26,307 bases of DNA from Bacteroidota bacterium (GCA_030540495.1 JAUNWC010000001.1:1-26307); one strand, 5' to 3'; shown: positions 1,586-16,293, counted from the stretch's first letter. The notes: generated by a model not told the origin, from the letters alone. Program-made: numbers and translations.

Positions 1586-1604
1586 TTACAGGCACAGCCT
1601 GTAA
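1586..1604. repeat. Isolated triloop hairpin of the GGC-N3-GCC family
   Basis: TTACAGGC-ACA-GCCTGTAA, a perfect 8-bp stem. Same core as hairpins at 12025-12038 and 12275-12289. Confidence 0.6.
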
Positions 1605-9335: not shown

Positions 9336-10001
9336 ATGAAAAGATTTTTAGTAATGACTATGATGGTCGTAATAATAGCTATAAGTGGCTATTCACAAGA
9401 AAGTAATGTAAAACGTCATAATTTTGGTATAGGAATCTCCTCCTCCTTATCCTCTTCTACAAATAAATTCTTAAAACACATTGGCAATAATACTTTTGAA
9501 GGAAATTTCGGCAAGATAGATAAGAATTTTGATTTAAACCTATCGTTTCTTTACGAATACAATGTTAGCAAAAATATAACCATAGGAGTGGCTCCCACAT
9601 ACAGAGAGAGCAGGGCTGAAATTAATTATCAATATGAAAGTAGCCTGTTTGGAGAAACAACAGAGACTATCTATGATATAGAAGTTCCTTTGTTTGTAGA
9701 TTACAAATTTTCAGTAATGGAAAAGAACAAGTTGTTTGCCGGAGTAGGTTTTTCGGGCTTGTTTAATATAAACACCGATTCAGAGGAAATTGCAACAAAA
9801 AATACATTCTCTCCTTATATGCTTTTCCGTTTGGGATTTGATGTCTATGGAAAACACAGAATACAATTTCTTATGCAATATAGATGTAACCTTTCGGCAA
9901 ATACTTATTATAATGGCATAGATTACAATATGTTCCCTCATATACAAAAAGAGTATTTTAAAGTAAATACTTTTGATGTAGGAGTAAATTTCTTTTTCTA
10001 A
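9336..10001 (+). CDS. Outer-membrane beta-barrel (porin-like) protein
   Basis: 221 aa. Signal peptide, amphipathic strands (LSFLYEYN, IEVPLFVDYKF) and a C-terminal Phe (FDVGVNFFF). Confidence 0.75.
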   Translation: MKRFLVMTMMVVIIAISGYSQESNVKRHNFGIGISSSLSSSTNKFLKHIGNNTFEGNFGKIDKNFDLNLSFLYEYNVSKNITIGVAPTYRESRAEINYQYESSLFGETTETIYDIEVPLFVDYKFSVMEKNKLFAGVGFSGLFNINTDSEEIATKNTFSPYMLFRLGFDVYGKHRIQFLMQYRCNLSANTYYNGIDYNMFPHIQKEYFKVNTFDVGVNFFF

Positions 10002-10013
10002 AAAGAGAAAAGT

Positions 10014-10126
10014 ATAAGTATTATAAGTTAGCATAGGTTACAGCCACAGGCTGTTTTATAGGACGCATAAGCGTATGACATAATTTAAGTTTTCTTACAC
10101 TCCTATCTTAACCTATGCTAACTTAT
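10014..10126. repeat. Extragenic palindromic element, copy A (REP/REPIN- or MITE-like)
   Basis: Perfect 18-bp inverted repeat ATAAGTTAGCATAGGTTA (10023-10040) / TAACCTATGCTAACTTAT (10109-10126). It encloses the small hairpins ACAGCC-ACA-GGCTGT and ACGC-ATAA-GCGT. Confidence 0.8.
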
Positions 10127-10397: not shown

Positions 10398-11774
10398 ATG
10401 GAATTACCATTTGCAGAAAGTTGGAAAATTAAAATGGTGGAACCTATAAGAAAATCCACTAAAGAACAAAGAGAACAATGGCTTAAAGAAGCCCATTACA
10501 ATGTATTTCAATTGAAGAGTGAGCAGGTTTATATTGACCTTTTGACAGACTCTGGAACAGGAGCAATGTCTCAGGAGCAATGGGCTGCTATGATGTTAGG
10601 AGATGAATCATACGCTGGAGCAACCTCGTTCTATAAATTTGAAAGTACAATAAAAAGAATTTTTGGTTTGGATTATGTTATTCCTACCCACCAAGGTCGT
10701 GCTGCAGAAAATGTTTTGTTTTCTTATCTTGTAAAAGAAGGTAACGTTATTCCTGGCAATGCTCACTTTGACACAACCAAAGGACATATAGAATCTCGTC
10801 ATGCTTTTGCTATAGACGTAACCATACCTGAGGCTAATGATACTCAACTTGAATTGCCTTTTAAGGGAAATGTTTCCATAGAGTTGTTGAAAAAAGTGTT
10901 GGAAGAGAATAAAGGCAACGTACCTTTCTTTGTGCTTACAGTAACCAACAATACTAAGGGCGGACAACCTGTAAGTATGCAAAACATAAAAGAAACTTGT
11001 GAGGTTTGTCATTCTTACAATGTTCCTGTGGTTATGGACTCTGCTCGTTTTGCCGAAAATGCTTATTTTATCAAAACAAGAGAGGAGGGATACAAAGAAA
11101 AGACAATAAAAGAAATTGTTAAGGAAATGTATTCATACGTTGATGCTGCCACAATGTCTTGCAAAAAAGATGCAATAGTAAATATGGGAGGATTTATTGC
11201 TATGCGTAACAAAGAATGGTATGAGGGTTGTAAATTGTTCTGCATACCTTTTGAGGGTTATGTAACATATGGCGGTTTGAACGGCAGAGACCTTAATGCT
11301 ATAGCAGTAGGTTTGGACGAGAATACAGAGTTTGATATGCTTGAAACTCGTATTAAGCAAGTTGAGTATTTAGCAAAGAAACTTGACGAATATGGCATAC
11401 CTTACCAAAGACCTGCAGGCGGACATGCTATATTTGTGGATGCAGATAGAGTTTTAGACCAAATACCAAAGGAGGAATTTCCAGGACAAACTCTTACTTG
11501 TGAATTGTATTTGGAGGCAGGAATACGTGCTTGCGAAATAGGATATATGCTTGCCGACAGAGACCCTGTAACAAGAGAGAATCGTTTTGGAGGAATGGAT
11601 TTGCTTAGACTTTGCATACCAAGGAGAGTTTATACCAACAACCATATGGATGTAATTGCCGCTGCTTTGAAAAATGTTTATGACCGCAGACACGAAATCA
11701 AAAGAGGCGTTGCCATAGAGTGGGAAGCACCTTTGATGAGACACTTTACCGTCCAACTAAAAAGATTAGGATAA
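10398..11774 (+). CDS. tnaA: Tryptophanase (tryptophan indole-lyase, PLP-dependent)
   Basis: 458 aa. IDLLTDSGT, GDESYAG, PTHQGRAAE and MSCKKD (PLP Lys). Residues that distinguish tryptophanase from tyrosine phenol-lyase are the tryptophanase type: FDTT (Asp), CEIG (Ile) and RHFT (His). Confidence 0.95.
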   Translation: MELPFAESWKIKMVEPIRKSTKEQREQWLKEAHYNVFQLKSEQVYIDLLTDSGTGAMSQEQWAAMMLGDESYAGATSFYKFESTIKRIFGLDYVIPTHQGRAAENVLFSYLVKEGNVIPGNAHFDTTKGHIESRHAFAIDVTIPEANDTQLELPFKGNVSIELLKKVLEENKGNVPFFVLTVTNNTKGGQPVSMQNIKETCEVCHSYNVPVVMDSARFAENAYFIKTREEGYKEKTIKEIVKEMYSYVDAATMSCKKDAIVNMGGFIAMRNKEWYEGCKLFCIPFEGYVTYGGLNGRDLNAIAVGLDENTEFDMLETRIKQVEYLAKKLDEYGIPYQRPAGGHAIFVDADRVLDQIPKEEFPGQTLTCELYLEAGIRACEIGYMLADRDPVTRENRFGGMDLLRLCIPRRVYTNNHMDVIAAALKNVYDRRHEIKRGVAIEWEAPLMRHFTVQLKRLG

Positions 11775-11795: not shown

Positions 11796-11835
11796 AATAA
11801 GTGGCAAGTTCAAAGAACTTGCCACTTATTTCTTT
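11796..11835 (+). terminator. Intrinsic terminator of tnaA
   Basis: AATAAGTGGCAAGTTC-AAA-GAACTTGCCACTTATT, a 16-bp perfect stem followed by TCTTT, ~20 nt after the stop. Confidence 0.88.
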
Positions 11836-11838
11836 GAT

Positions 11839-12095
11839 ATAAGTTTTATAAGTTGTAATAGGTTAGCATAGGTTGGAGGCTAAGCCTCCTATAAGTTAGC
11901 ATAAGTTGTAATAAGTTAGTATAGGAGGCAAAGCCGTTATATTTTACTATACGCTTATGTGTCTCCTATAATAACCTATGCTAACTTATAGGAGCCAAAG
12001 GCTCCAACTTATAATAACCTATTAGGAGGCACAGCCTCAAACCTACCGTAACCTATTACAACCTATAAAACAACCTGTGGTTGCAACTTATAAAA
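11839..12095. repeat. Extragenic palindromic element, copy B (~257 bp nested inverted repeat)
   Basis: 11843-11874 vs 12040-12071 match 28/32 as an inverted repeat. 11886-11907 vs 11973-11994 match 21/22. 11844-11855 vs 12084-12095 match 12/12. Built from 10-bp-phased ATA(A/G)GTT units and triloop hairpins. Confidence 0.85.
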
Positions 12096-12132
12096 GAAAA
12101 ATGGACAACTCTTTTCCAAAGAGTTGTCCATT
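12091..12132 (-). terminator. Intrinsic terminator of the T9SS adhesin gene
   Basis: AATGGACAACTCTTT-TCC-AAAGAGTTGTCCATT, a 15-bp perfect stem. TAAAAGAAA on its left gives a U-tract on the minus strand. Confidence 0.85.
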
Positions 12133-12151: not shown

Positions 12152-12289
12152 GGGCTATGCCCTATAAAATCACCCTGTGGGTGCAGCCTGAGGCTGTTCT
12201 ATAAAACGCTTAAGCGTATGTATTTTATAATGCTTTGCCCGTAGAAAACCTCTTAAATGGCTCTGCCCTATAAGACAGGCTAAGCCTGT
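12152..12289. repeat. Chain of small hairpins related to copies A and B (copy C)
   Basis: GGGC-TAT-GCCC, CACCC-TGT-GGGTG, CAGCC-TGA-GGCTG, ACGC-TTAA-GCGT and ACAGGC-TAA-GCCTGT. 12184-12220 closely resembles 10041-10077. Confidence 0.75.
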
Positions 12290-15200
12290 TTGATAAGTTT
12301 TTCTGTTCTTATAGTATTAGCAGTTTGTACTCTTATGTAATAAACTCCGCTTGCAAGATTGTCTGTCTCTACTTCCATAGAATCAACACCTTGTGGTAGA
12401 ACCTTAGAAGAAATTACTCTTCCTTGTTGGTCGGTGATGATTATGGTTGCTTGCTCGTTTAAGCCATTGACTTTCAAAGTTGCATTAGCCTTTGTAGGGT
12501 TAGGGTATAGACTTATGGTTAAGCCCTCTGCTATTTCTGCTATGCCAGAGTTTGCTACAAGAGTTAGGTTATATACTTGGTCGCAACCATACTCGTCCTC
12601 TTCTGTTACGGAGTAAGAGCCGTAAGCCGTGTAGGTTTCGCCGTGGTAAGTATAAGGGAACTCGCTTGAAGAAAGTGTAACCTCTTCGTTTATAGGAGTG
12701 TTCTCTGGTCTAACATAAAGGTTTATTCTAAAGTTAGTATCGCAATCTCCGTTTTGTCCCTCAACTGTAAGATAATACAAATCTGTTGTAGTGTAAGTTT
12801 GTCCGCGGAAGGTAAAACTTTCTCCGAAACAAATAGTATCTTCTACTGTTGCAATAACTGTGGTGCAAGGCTCATCTTCATCCACAAGGGTTGTGAAATA
12901 TTGCTCTGAGCCATAAACTGTTCCGTTGGCTGTGGTTACAAATGCTTTGTACATATAATAAGTATTTGCAGTTAAGCCACTTAGATTATAAGTGAATGTA
13001 TTGCCTGCATCGGTAGAAGTTACTTGAGTATAAGTACCTCCGTAAGCAGTTTTCCACTCAAAACCTTTGGCGGTTATGGTTTGGTTGCCCGCTGAGGTTA
13101 CCTCTCCGTTAAGAGTAACAGAAGTTTGAGCAACAGAAGTTGCTGCATTGGTTACTACTGTTGGGTTGATAGGGTCGGAGGTTGTGTTGCCCTCGTTACT
13201 AATAACCACATTGTCCAAATATACTCCATAACCATCGTGGCAAGCGGCAACAAATGCTATTTGATAAGTTGTGCTTGTGTTAGGTAGGTCTATGCTATTT
13301 GACTGAGAAGTAGATTTGGTTATGTTTTGTTCTGACATGCTTGGTCCGTGAGCGGCTAATAATGTCCATTCTCCCGTTGCACTTGTTCTATAATAAACAT
13401 ATAGAGAATCCTCACTTGTGTTCCAACTACAAGTCTCATATTCGTAAGAAAGATTTGGAGTGGTAAGCGTGGTCATATCCAATACTGGAGAAATCAAACG
13501 AGTAGAACCTGTGGTATAGTGTCTGTAAGCAACGTGGTTGTTTGTAGAATAATCATAGGATATTTCCCAATTTGTTATACCAGATACGGTTTGACTTGTC
13601 CAACAACCCAAATTACTTGTAGTCAATGTTTCAAAATCCTCTGTATAAGGAAAGTCTGTAATAGCAGAACACTCTGTGCGGAAAGTAGTAACATCTGAAG
13701 TCAATTCTACTCCGTCCTCGCAAATAGCCTTAATATATAGGCTGTATTCTGAGGAATGGTTAAGGTCGGTAATTGTTGCATTCCAAGAATTTGCTCCTGT
13801 TGTAGAAGGAACGGCTGTGGCTTGAGTATATTCACTTTCGGAGTTTAGTTTGTAGTAGATTTCAAAATCATCACCTGAGGAAGTCCAACTAACATTTGCT
13901 TGGTCGGCACTTGCAGTTACTGTTACGTTATCTGGACGCGTGCAAGAAGGAATAAGGTTCAAAGTTACATCATCCACATGCATAATAGTATTGGAGTAAG
14001 AAGAAGAATTCTTTATAGCAATATAAGAACCTGTGCCTGTGTAAGAAGATAAATCTACTTCATAGAACGTGTATTCAGTATTCAAAGTCATGGAAGAAAC
14101 CTCAGTGAAAGTTGTAGCGTCCATAGGATTTGTCATAACTCCTACTGATAATGTAGCAGTGTAATTATAAGGTCCTCTTGCAAAGAAGGAAAGTTGCAAA
14201 GTGTTTATAGGCAAAGCCTCAGTATCTATTTGAGGAAGTACTCCTATATCTCCGCTATTGCCATAGTATAATGAATAAGAACCATAGTGAGCATAAGATG
14301 AGTTATAAGAATATGGATATCCTATGCTTGGTCTTTGCCAACAAGCAGGCAATTCATTGTATAGAGTTCCGGCAGTGTTGTTTGTCTCAAAGTCCCAAGT
14401 TTGAGGAACATCGCTAATCAAAGCACAAGCGGTGGTAAATTGGAAAGTTTCTGAAGCATATGTATTGTTATCTGAGGTGCAAAGGTAAGAAACATACCAA
14501 TCATAAGTGGTGCTTGCCTCTAAGCCTGAAAGAGTATAAACTCCTGTTGCATCAAGATAAGCATTCTCTATGGAGTCAAAGTCAGTAGCAGAAGTCTCCT
14601 TGTAATGAATAGTTATGGCTGTTGCTGTTGGACCATTCCATTTAAGGTCTATACTTGAAGCAGTAGGGTTGATAGCAAGCAAGGATGTTGGAGCAGAGCA
14701 ATCAGGTAGTTCTTCTACTTTTACATCATCAAGATACCATAACCAATAAGCATTGTTGACAACATGACGGAAAGCAATATATCCTGTCTCTGCCTCTCCC
14801 AAATCTACTTGGTCAAAATTCACTCTGTATTTGTGCCAAGTAGTATCTCCATTAAGAGTAGCGGTGCTAACAGAATCTACCATAATAAATGTACTTGCAT
14901 CTGTTGGGTCGGTTACATAACCTATTTCCAAACGACCAGAAGAAGTGGTAATGCTCTCTGGTTTTGTCCAAAATTCAACAGAAAGTTGATTTAACTCAGT
15001 GCTAAATTCTGGCAAAACAGCAATGGTTGGAGTTGCTATCTGTGAATAGAAGTCCATACCTTTGGAAGATACATGACCGCTATAACTTGAAGTATTTACA
15101 CAAGGGAAAGTTTTTCCGTTTTCTGTTCTGCTATTGATAAATGACCAGCAAACAGGTCTTGCATACTGTTCTATTTCTTCAAAGTCCATTGTATAAGGTA

Positions 15201-16293
15201 TATCAAAAGGAACACATCCTGTGGTAAAGGTATGAATTACAGAGGAGGATTCGCTATTATCATTGCAAACGGTGGCAACATAGTATTGATAAGTTGTTGC
15301 ACCTTCAAGGTTGTTTAGTGTATAAACGCCATTGGTCAATGTTGCTTCATCTACAGAATATTCTACGTCGTCTCCGTCAGTAATTTTTTTGTAATAAACT
15401 TTGAAACTCTCGTCTCCATCATAACTCCAAGTAAGGTCTACGCTTGTAGCAGTAGCATTGCTATAAGAGATATTTGTAGGCTCCAAGCAAGTTGGAATTT
15501 GATTTATTCTAAGGTCGTCTAATAGATATTCGCCATTATTATAAGCGTATTCTCCACCTAAGCCCAAGTATCTTACAGCAATATAATAGGAGTTACCTGT
15601 GTAAGTAAAGTTGTTGAAATCTATGGTTTGCAAAGAATAGGTTGTTGTTATAGAATCTTGTAGAATACTTTTTAGAGAAACAAAGGTATTTATATTATTA
15701 GGGTCTGTCATAACGCCTACCTCTATATTACCAAATTGATAATTAGTGCTGCCGTAATAGGTGGTAGAGTATTTTCTAAGTTGGAATTGCAAACGAGTTT
15801 GCTCTATATCTAAATCAACCTTAGGAGCAACAACCATCATAGGAGTTACACTGCTTCCACCTATAACCAACATGGTATTAGGAGAGTAAGCATAATTTGC
15901 ATTAGTATATACCTCAGGGTAATAAGTCCATTCCCAATAATTATAAGACCTACTTTCTGAGGCAATTGTCCAACAATTTAATACAGAATTATCTTCAAAA
16001 TCTACAAAATAAGGAACATCTACAGTGCTACAAAGAGTAGAAACTGTAATGCTTCTGTACATAGCATCAGTTATATTCTCACAATCAGGTGCTATTTCTA
16101 TAATATACTCTGTGTTTTCTGATAAATCTGTTATTGTTGCAGTGGAGTTTGTTACCTCTACATTGTCAGTACTCCAATCTTGTGGTGTTTCAGTATCGGT
16201 TGTTTTATAACGAACAGCGTAGTTGTTATTGTTGCCAACCCAAGAAAGAGATATGCTGTTAGCAGTCTTAGAAGTAACAGTTATTTGTTGCAC
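12280..16293 (-). CDS. C-terminal fragment of the split adhesin: four FN3+adhesin-like units, an extra FN3-like domain, two small Cys modules and a T9SS type A CTD
   Basis: ISLYPNPT...IITDQQGR...LASGVYYIRV...EKLIK is a T9SS CTD. The GTG start has no signal peptide. Confidence 0.6.
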   Translation of the reverse strand: MQQITVTSKTANSISLSWVGNNNNYAVRYKTTDTETPQDWSTDNVEVTNSTATITDLSENTEYIIEIAPDCENITDAMYRSITVSTLCSTVDVPYFVDFEDNSVLNCWTIASESRSYNYWEWTYYPEVYTNANYAYSPNTMLVIGGSSVTPMMVVAPKVDLDIEQTRLQFQLRKYSTTYYGSTNYQFGNIEVGVMTDPNNINTFVSLKSILQDSITTTYSLQTIDFNNFTYTGNSYYIAVRYLGLGGEYAYNNGEYLLDDLRINQIPTCLEPTNISYSNATATSVDLTWSYDGDESFKVYYKKITDGDDVEYSVDEATLTNGVYTLNNLEGATTYQYYVATVCNDNSESSSVIHTFTTGCVPFDIPYTMDFEEIEQYARPVCWSFINSRTENGKTFPCVNTSSYSGHVSSKGMDFYSQIATPTIAVLPEFSTELNQLSVEFWTKPESITTSSGRLEIGYVTDPTDASTFIMVDSVSTATLNGDTTWHKYRVNFDQVDLGEAETGYIAFRHVVNNAYWLWYLDDVKVEELPDCSAPTSLLAINPTASSIDLKWNGPTATAITIHYKETSATDFDSIENAYLDATGVYTLSGLEASTTYDWYVSYLCTSDNNTYASETFQFTTACALISDVPQTWDFETNNTAGTLYNELPACWQRPSIGYPYSYNSSYAHYGSYSLYYGNSGDIGVLPQIDTEALPINTLQLSFFARGPYNYTATLSVGVMTNPMDATTFTEVSSMTLNTEYTFYEVDLSSYTGTGSYIAIKNSSSYSNTIMHVDDVTLNLIPSCTRPDNVTVTASADQANVSWTSSGDDFEIYYKLNSESEYTQATAVPSTTGANSWNATITDLNHSSEYSLYIKAICEDGVELTSDVTTFRTECSAITDFPYTEDFETLTTSNLGCWTSQTVSGITNWEISYDYSTNNHVAYRHYTTGSTRLISPVLDMTTLTTPNLSYEYETCSWNTSEDSLYVYYRTSATGEWTLLAAHGPSMSEQNITKSTSQSNSIDLPNTSTTYQIAFVAACHDGYGVYLDNVVISNEGNTTSDPINPTVVTNAATSVAQTSVTLNGEVTSAGNQTITAKGFEWKTAYGGTYTQVTSTDAGNTFTYNLSGLTANTYYMYKAFVTTANGTVYGSEQYFTTLVDEDEPCTTVIATVEDTICFGESFTFRGQTYTTTDLYYLTVEGQNGDCDTNFRINLYVRPENTPINEEVTLSSSEFPYTYHGETYTAYGSYSVTEEDEYGCDQVYNLTLVANSGIAEIAEGLTISLYPNPTKANATLKVNGLNEQATIIITDQQGRVISSKVLPQGVDSMEVETDNLASGVYYIRVQTANTIRTEKLIKQA

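Follow-up and report, generated by a model that had tools for sequence, protein, structure and literature searches.

We found that the palindromic element at positions 11839-12095 (E2) of the DNA analyzed here is, with a probability of about 0.75, a copy of a lineage-restricted, non-coding mosaic repeat family comparable in general type to REP/BIME, BOX, and MITE-like repeats. The window, by which we mean the whole 26,307-nt stretch under study, is contig C265 of the genome G000, a MAG of 1.81 Mb in 348 contigs with a G+C content of 34.6% and a completeness of 89.7%. The initial annotation of this DNA had suspected an unnamed REP- or MITE-like family. Such a family is indeed spread over the genome at about 193 loci and shows presence/absence polymorphism between sister species, and it is thus not confined to the locus at which it was noticed.

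Direct inspection of E2 matched the earlier description of a 257-bp nested palindrome built from helically phased 10-mers and hairpins. The palindrome is real and lies far above chance, as a genome-wide pattern search illustrates: a 17-mer comprising two units has 254 matches in G000, while its reversed control has 0. The previously given arm matches (28/32, 21/22, and 12/12) agree broadly with our inverted-repeat search, which returned arms of 58 nt (83% complementary), 49 nt (86%), 30 nt (80%), and 17 nt (94%). While the arms of the proposed nested palindrome stood, its centre did not, as it turned out to be a conserved asymmetric module that lies outside the palindrome. In E2, this centre is composed of a tetraloop hairpin with a 4-bp stem, an A-rich linker, and a short G+C-rich hairpin, and it is closed by a short inverted repeat. 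The cores of the left arm follow each other at 10 bp except for the first two, which are 9 bp apart, and they come in two variants that differ at position 4 (A or G), one found at 11839-11845 and the other at 11858-11864. The location between two convergent terminators was borne out, with terminator-like hairpins and T-runs on both sides of E2. The adhesin gene on the right encodes fn3 and Por_Secre_tail domains. The coordinates of all features are compiled in Table 1.

Table 1. Repeat modules and bounding terminator-like hairpins in the window
Feature	Position	Strand	Description
Solitary hairpin module	1588-1602	.	second stem class; in the gap of two minus-strand genes
E1, short copy	10013-10126	+	two units per arm, one hairpin, forward centre; centre match 10057-10116, E 2.9e-5
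Terminator-like hairpin with T-run	11796-11830	+	end of the tryptophanase gene (10398-11774); 16-bp stem, 3-nt loop, T-rich tail; 100% complementary
E2, left arm	11839-11917	+	seven exact 7-nt cores with 3-nt spacers (10-bp units), one hairpin in a spacer slot
E2, left-arm hairpin module	11875-11889	.	15 nt; perfect 6-bp G+C-rich stem, 3-nt loop
E2, centre module	11911-11979	-	asymmetric, reverse orientation; by-eye alignment of ~60 centres; nhmmer E 1.6e-16
E2, right arm	11973-12091	-	seven exact reverse-complement units plus degenerate ones
E2, right-arm hairpin modules	11991-12005; 12025-12038; 12071-12083		12025-12038 imperfect, one pair short
Terminator-like hairpin with T-run	12100-12132	-	of the minus-strand T9SS adhesin gene (12280-16293); right boundary of E2
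E3, arm-less mosaic	12152-12290	+	hairpin and centre-type modules like those of E2; module matches at 12153, 12171, 12206, 12259, 12275

The hairpin at the end of the tryptophanase gene marks the left boundary of E2 and is not part of the repeat itself. When folded as DNA, positions 11832-12100 reached -62 kcal/mol compared to -23.7 ± 3.3 kcal/mol for shuffled sequences (z -11.7), and the same stretch folded as RNA reached -109 kcal/mol (z -11.0); none of 200 shuffles folded as well. DNA and RNA alike are predicted to form a single long branched hairpin. Across the 68 whole copies that are internal to contigs in G000, the median z of the predicted fold was -10, and z fell below -4 in 66 of them.

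In G000, we identified 251 arms with at least three exact units each, 1160 units in total, and 131 matches to an nhmmer profile of the centre, 116 of which adjoin unit arrays. Merging arrays and centres gave 193 loci, which together account for about 1.4% of the assembly. Because elements were identified by exact cores, their counts are lower bounds, and with 129 of the 696 contig ends located no more than 300 bp from a locus, the true number of loci is higher; genes were called by a longest-ORF rule. Whole copies span 61-413 bp, have a centre of about 50 nt, and always follow the order plus-arm, centre, minus-arm. For 115 arms, no partner arm with at least three units is present; in 83 cases a contig end is no more than 250 bp away, and these arms thus mostly belong to copies that the assembly truncated. 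Doubled centres occur in some copies, others have no arms, and the units, the two hairpin types, and the sub-modules of the centre occur in many orders.

The helical phasing of about 10 bp proposed for E2 holds throughout the family: 614 successive spacings were exactly 10 bp, followed by 20 bp with 63 cases. The latter class corresponds to one degenerate unit in between, and spacings of 23-25 bp to a hairpin in the spacer slot. In order to avoid ascertainment bias, we derived unit conservation from units located between two exact units (n = 346). Positions 2, 3, 5, 6, and 7 of the 7-nt core are 95-99% conserved, position 1 is 87% conserved, and position 4 is a purine, while the three spacer positions reach only 67, 55, and 42%. 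This sharp difference between core and spacer suggests that the core is read by a protein. The commonest spacer accounts for 38% of cases and follows itself 16 times where 28.8 are expected, an alternation that suggests a loose 20-bp dimer. Identical neighbouring spacers were likewise scarcer than in shuffles (22 vs 47 ± 5.6), which argues against arrays that are fresh products of slippage; such an origin by 10-bp or 20-bp slippage was rejected, with identical spacers below the shuffles at lag 1 and at lag 2. We propose that perfect neighbouring repeats are lost by slippage.

These unit data bear on the tentative possibility that the elements form a protein-binding lattice used by the host. 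In such a lattice, the cores would be tandem head-to-tail sites, one each helical turn, for instance for a winged-helix or nucleoid-associated protein, and the elements would act as boundaries or insulators between transcription units; a selfish origin would be compatible with this role. Conserved cores, the strict 10-bp period, and the avoidance of identical neighbours would all be in line with it, as would the finding that elements bracket transcription units as well as a second repeat, F2, and that units stay intact when orthologous copies are fully remodelled (see below). However, no candidate protein emerged, the 19 congeners devoid of elements imply that any function is dispensable, copy number differs twenty-fold among the carriers, and unit numbers are highly variable, from 3 to 13 per arm and unmatched within a copy. 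In addition, concerted evolution via recombination between copies could equally keep the cores uniform.

Perfect hairpins with a 6-bp stem are concentrated in the family, with 198 in 56 kb of element DNA compared to 41 in the remaining 1.75 Mb. Of the 198 perfect hairpins in or around elements, 192 fall into four stem classes with 65, 65, 31, and 31 perfect copies, between which a G:C pair is swapped for C:G in a compensated manner; the left-arm hairpin of E2 belongs to one of these. No rule was found that links the stem class or position of a hairpin to one side of the centre. The numbers of units in paired arms correlate (r = 0.53). The arms are not a true co-evolving palindrome, as an arm is no closer to its own partner (similarity 0.495) than to the arms of other copies (0.506), its own partner having a median rank of 37 out of 67. 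The elements may form a cruciform in view of their strong predicted fold potential, yet their arms do not co-evolve.

The loci of the family are intergenic and located at the edges of transcription units, chiefly right after stop codons and between convergent genes. An element was present in 17 of 93 convergent gaps, compared to 25 of the 1068 remaining gaps (odds ratio 9.3, p = 3e-9). At gene 3' ends, the median distance from the stop codon to the element is 18 nt, whereas a median of 119 nt separates the element from a downstream start codon. Out of 55 gene-end sides, the stop codon itself lies inside the element in 11, and a separate terminator-like hairpin precedes the element in only 13. 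Read inward, 246 of the 251 arms contain stops in all three frames, compared to 120 when read outward; this follows from a stop triplet in the core in combination with the 10-bp period. The genes between paired elements encode housekeeping functions, such as shikimate kinase, ribosomal proteins, TrkA, proton pyrophosphatase, and aconitase, as well as tryptophanase in the window. With only such ordinary genes present, we discarded the idea that paired elements enclose cargo genes.

Copies that abut a stop codon and are transcribed together with the gene in front of them would yield a stable hairpin at the 3' end, in the manner of REP sequences (PMC3184786), and by this analogy they probably end up as stable hairpins in 3' untranslated regions. 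E2 is situated outside both terminators, and without read-through this role would be inapplicable to it. As an explanation of the family, an action at the RNA level, in which the co-transcribed hairpin stabilizes the mRNA 3' end or aids termination, as for REP/BIME and SPRITE, or in which the centre encodes a small RNA, appears unlikely to us. The short distance to the stop codon and the scarcity of separate terminators are consistent with it, and so are the strong predicted RNA folds, the compensated stem variants, and one site (C78) at which the element occupies the position of the relatives' terminator. The position of E2 points the other way, and the hairpin formed by a whole element has a T-run on its 5' side and an A-run on its 3' side, which is the opposite of an intrinsic terminator. 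Moreover, the arms do not co-vary, and the orientation of the centre is not associated with the strand of the neighbouring genes (p = 0.13-0.27), on which ground the centre was rejected as a promoter or sRNA tied to these genes. A search of Rfam 15 returned no family at gathering score, only spurious matches to hairpin models of plant and animal miRNA precursors with 20-43 bits, where 60-180 bits are needed.

Among 22 genomes of the genus, the two-unit 17-mer was found 254 times in G000, 83 times in G004, and 13 times in G016, and it was absent from the other 19. The centre module is restricted to the same three carriers. At six loci, the three carriers are mutually closer than any is to the element-free relative G015. 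The family probably had a single origin in the ancestor of G000, G004, and G016. The copies in G004 and G016 are mostly mosaics of hairpins and centres with few 10-bp units, and the expansion of the arrays thus took place mainly in the lineage of the window. A sample of 399 genomes from 148 families of the order, with two candidates scored per genome, revealed no member of the family, and plasmid and phage collections yielded no match either. A three-unit pattern searched against public genome contigs was swamped by chance matches; the carriers it returned were the public MAGs CAZVEO01 and CAZITO01, both labelled uncultured Bacteroidaceae. None of 80 metagenome tnaA loci contained an element, the best tryptophanase match there having 86% identity and none stemming from a conspecific strain, and an exact look-up of the tryptophanase protein for conspecific contigs yielded no record.

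Comparison of orthologous sites revealed both gain or loss and remodelling of copies. At the C78 site, the element of G000 directly follows the stop codon, while G004 and G015 have ordinary terminators, and presence or absence thus differs between sister species. The modular growth that had been postulated from E2 is consistent with the size differences at shared sites: 3' of the left C96 gene, a length of 388 bp in G000 compares with about 130 bp in G016, and G004 has a mini-palindrome of about 45 bp at this site. The site upstream of the tryptophanase leader and promoter is occupied in both G000 and G004, by elements that differ in module order; a remnant is found there in G016, and nothing in G015. 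Downstream of tryptophanase, where E2 is located, no element is present in the relatives, in which the next gene also differs. Individual units are intact even though orthologous copies are wholly remodelled between species whose genes are about 80-86% identical.

Elements also coincide with breaks in gene order. At five of six tested loci, the genes flanking the G000 element are not adjacent in relatives. Only 1 of 13 gene pairs separated by an element kept its adjacency in G015, compared to 104 of 177 other pairs (p = 3e-4), and the difference persisted when controls were limited to gaps of at least 60 bp (p = 0.014) or at least 100 bp (p = 0.049); this test was based on 370 kb, or a fifth, of the G015 genome. 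The signal is confounded, because element-free convergent gaps are also seldom conserved (1/14). The left flank of the G000 element at C96 matches one element-bearing locus of G016, and the right flank matches another. Such a split is expected from recombination between two copies, which would also account for the chimeric arms.

Taken together, we propose that copies of this mosaic repeat family are reshuffled through recombination with each other at the conserved cores, which would explain the chimeric arms, the unique module orders, and the synteny breaks, and that the family would persist since insertions at gene ends are tolerated. The 7-nt core is probably still read by a sequence-specific protein, which could be a recombinase, a transposase, or a host DNA-binding protein. 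How new copies arise can only be inferred, as no enzyme or binding protein was found.

It is improbable that the elements are classical MITEs, i.e. deletion derivatives of an insertion sequence (IS) whose arms are terminal inverted repeats with several transposase sites and whose trans-acting transposase was missed in the MAGs. Some transposons carry subterminal binding sites that resemble the inverted arms of repeated cores described here. Small size, lack of coding capacity, extensive base pairing, and high copy number (61-413 bp, median z -10, ~193 loci) would fit such a derivation, as would the patchy presence in the genus with empty sites and the frequent loss of IS elements from MAGs. 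A target preference could explain why the 5 nt beyond the outermost unit are rich in T. However, we detected no target-site duplication, the longest direct word shared by a copy's own flanks being 5.85 nt compared to 5.78 nt for flanks of different copies; a 2-bp duplication might have escaped detection, because the element ends are fuzzy. Near-identical whole copies are absent from G000 as well, where the best pair is 89% identical over 190 nt and the median best match is 72%. The arms of 3 to 13 units, which are unmatched within a copy, and the housekeeping genes between elements further argue against a MITE. None of the five genomes checked contained an IS110 or DDE_Tnp_1 transposase, and the single rve (IS3-like) gene, present in G000 only, is located on a 1.6-kb contig without units and does not adjoin an element. 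With neither duplications nor near-identical copies nor a matching IS, the suggested MITE-like nature thus did not hold in its classical form; since the MAG is fragmented, with breaks perhaps at the youngest copies, the lack of near-identical copies and of an IS may in part be an effect of the assembly.

Mobilization of hairpins by an HUH (RAYT/IS200-like) nuclease, as put forward in the initial annotation, found no support. In such a REPIN-type system, pairs of hairpins would be mobilized in trans by a RAYT transposase (Y1 HUH, IS200-like), and the many short G+C-rich hairpins, their inverted arrangement with the potential for a long hairpin, and their extragenic location with a bias for convergent gaps are reminiscent of it. 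Pfam Y1_Tnp was absent from all 22 genus genomes at E <= 0.001, including the carriers G004 (100% complete) and G016 (98%), and with it any Y1 gene that could be flanked by units, while 6 of 14 control genomes gave matches. The reading thus fails its defining test. Hairpins are furthermore only one module here, and the bulk of the element is an array of 10-bp units, which REPINs do not have; we consider this origin very improbable. Loss of the hairpin nuclease SbcD was tried as a permissive cause and rejected, as no above-cut-off match was obtained in the three carriers, nor in 13 of the 19 non-carriers. An artefact of assembly or binning has a negligible probability: although the MAG is fragmented and repeats lie near many contig ends, E2 is flanked by intact genes and located 11.8 kb into the longest contig, 68 whole copies are contig-internal, and three independently assembled genomes contain the family and share orthologous sites.

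The mosaic repeat family resembles several known systems. REP/BIME sequences of Enterobacteriaceae and Pseudomonas have been linked to recombination, mRNA 3' ends, and protein binding (PMC3184786). They share with the present family hundreds of extragenic copies, mosaics of G+C-rich stem-loops, and a bias for convergent gaps, and the mosaic make-up, the location at gene ends, and the synteny breaks observed here match this picture. In contrast, the family has no sequence relation to REP/BIME, comes without a RAYT, is restricted to three species of one genus, and consists mostly of a phased array of 10-bp units, which BIMEs do not possess. The enterobacterial PU/REP sequences that characterize the E. 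coli BIME family are missing, and the architecture is a BIME-like mosaic.

The BOX elements of pneumococci consist of boxA, a variable number of boxB modules, and boxC, span 67-637 bp, and were judged parasitic with a slow turnover (PMC3049150). A variable number of tandem modules, a wide size range (67-637 vs 61-413 bp), and an enrichment in convergent gaps are common to both, as are size variation per site between genomes and restriction to close relatives. BOX elements have distinct non-palindromic end modules and reported TIRs and TSDs (PMC3049150), while we found no TSD, and the variable module here forms both inverted arms around a constant central part. In Porphyromonas gingivalis, the BrickBuilt MITE is present in 19 copies, in each of which a leader and a tail with small inverted ends enclose one direct array of 23-nt units, and promoter activity has been reported for its segments (PMC4596501). 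BrickBuilt and the present family occur in the same order, are intergenic, species-restricted, and non-coding, and contain a tandem array of short units; with regard to promoter activity, a promoter-like motif is found here in the associated repeat F2. The two inverted arrays of 10-nt units around a centre and the ~190 loci set the family apart from BrickBuilt as described. Our literature search on MITEs in Bacteroidales retrieved only the work on P. gingivalis.

Cyanobacterial STRR sequences are simple direct runs of heptamers without a conserved centre, hairpin modules, or an obligatory inverted partner; like the present family, they are intergenic, lineage-specific tandem arrays of very short units in many copies. 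Overall, the family belongs to none of REP/BIME, BOX, and BrickBuilt and is distinguished by two inverted, phased 10-bp arrays around a constant asymmetric centre. It is a variant of the known class of mosaic intergenic repeats, for which the REPIN/RAYT reading is unsupported.

These repeats make up more than 1% of a small gut-type Bacteroidales genome and break short-read assembly. They are found at almost every tested break in gene order with sister species, and by often providing the stop codon or replacing the terminator of the relatives, they shape both genome structure and gene ends. With its sharply conserved 7-nt core repeated every 10 bp, its lack of co-evolution between arms, and the absence of a recognizable transposase, the family lends itself to studying how repeats emerge and are maintained without a RAYT or an IS. 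An HMM of centre and unit would improve the annotation and scaffolding of the carrier MAGs.

The palindromic elements are accompanied by the second repeat, F2, which is non-coding and about 400 nt long and of which G004 and G016 each contain at least 31 copies. The 14 to about 30 copies in G000 are for the most part incomplete, being truncated at a contig end or no more than a few hundred bases away from one, and no other genus genome contains F2. In G004, a palindromic element nearly always lies alongside F2, usually on both sides. F2 comprises a promoter-like motif that fits the Bacteroidetes promoter consensus. It further contains an 11-nt palindrome in three copies and a 15-bp stem, after which the 3' arm of the stem is repeated ahead of a T-run. 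Double changes preserve the stem in the copy from G016, and two small loops are found in either orientation, depending on the copy. No Rfam match was obtained for F2. Seven of nine copies are oriented towards the next gene, and these downstream genes are mutually unrelated. Solo palindromes may be leftovers of recombination between two elements that flanked F2. A rather improbable extension of our model would be that the phased arrays are a working lattice of binding sites for a protein of the clade and that palindrome-F2-palindrome is a portable, transposase-free unit, which spreads and rearranges the chromosome through recombination at the cores and insulates transcription units.

Beyond E2, the window contains further members of the mosaic repeat family. 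E1 separates an OMP gene (9336-10001) from the tryptophanase promoter and leader. E3 is tied to E2 by direct and inverted repeat matches. It is located directly after the adhesin stop codon and inside the adhesin terminator and is thus probably part of the adhesin 3' untranslated region.

A second dispersed repeat, F2, was recognized as a non-coding sequence of ~400 nt (alignment A1 of its copies), and copies were detected in no genomes other than the three that carry the palindromic elements, namely G000, the genome of the window, and its congeners G004 and G016. F2 is present in at least 31 copies in G004 and in at least 31 in G016, while the number in G000 lies between 14 and ~30, the majority of these copies being cut at contig ends. 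Usually, a palindromic element is located on either side of F2. Within the repeat we found three 11-nt palindromes, a 15-bp stem that covaries and has a T-run downstream, and a promoter-like motif that matches the Bacteroidetes promoter consensus; F2 is often oriented towards the next gene.

Two small hairpin loops of F2 (A1 columns ~209-216 and ~309-316) are found in either orientation from copy to copy, the loop between the short inverted arms being flipped. A similar pattern is seen for the triloops of the element hairpins, which form reverse-complement pairs with near-equal counts across the genome. Additionally, each hairpin stem class comprises two variants that are equally numerous genome-wide (65 versus 65 and 31 versus 31), the variants of one class differing by a compensated G:C to C:G swap. 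We looked for a positional rule behind these equal stem-variant counts and found none that explains them; the equality may be due to chance.

The only transposase found is IS3-like and has an rve domain; it is encoded by two ORFs (92 and 271 aa) on a 1.6-kb contig of G000, and this pair is absent from the other two carriers, G004 and G016, as well as from the congeners G015 and G021. Among the 22 genomes of the genus, only 6 encode a full SbcD scoring above the cut-off of the NCBIfam model sbcd, and all three repeat carriers lack one.

In the window, the gene adjoining both E2, the palindromic element next to the tryptophanase gene tnaA, and E3, an arm-less mosaic, encodes a protein of 1337 aa that contains fn3 repeats and a C-terminal T9SS sorting domain. 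Its stop codon is overlapped by E3.

Locations of the genes and repeats described here.
Feature	Genome	Location	Strand
1337-aa protein gene	G000	window 12280-16293	minus
F2 example	G004	L003:1691-2190	
F2 example	G000	C179:1-251	
F2 example	G000	C57:1-154	
F2 example	G000	C218:2-174	
IS3-like ORF pair	G000	C160:306-1450	
Repeat-spacer array	G000	C120:9160-11174	
His-codon stretch	G021	L092	
His-codon stretch	G002	L093	
His-codon stretch	G019	L094	
His-codon stretch	G010	L095	

Elsewhere in G000, ~27 copies of a ~36-nt repeat are separated by unique spacers of ~30 nt, an arrangement that looks like a CRISPR array. In four relatives, a conserved stretch of ~33 nt lies ~200-260 nt downstream of tnaA; it includes three His codons in a row, and a hairpin and a T-run come after it. 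The arrangement resembles an attenuator preceded by a leader peptide rich in His.
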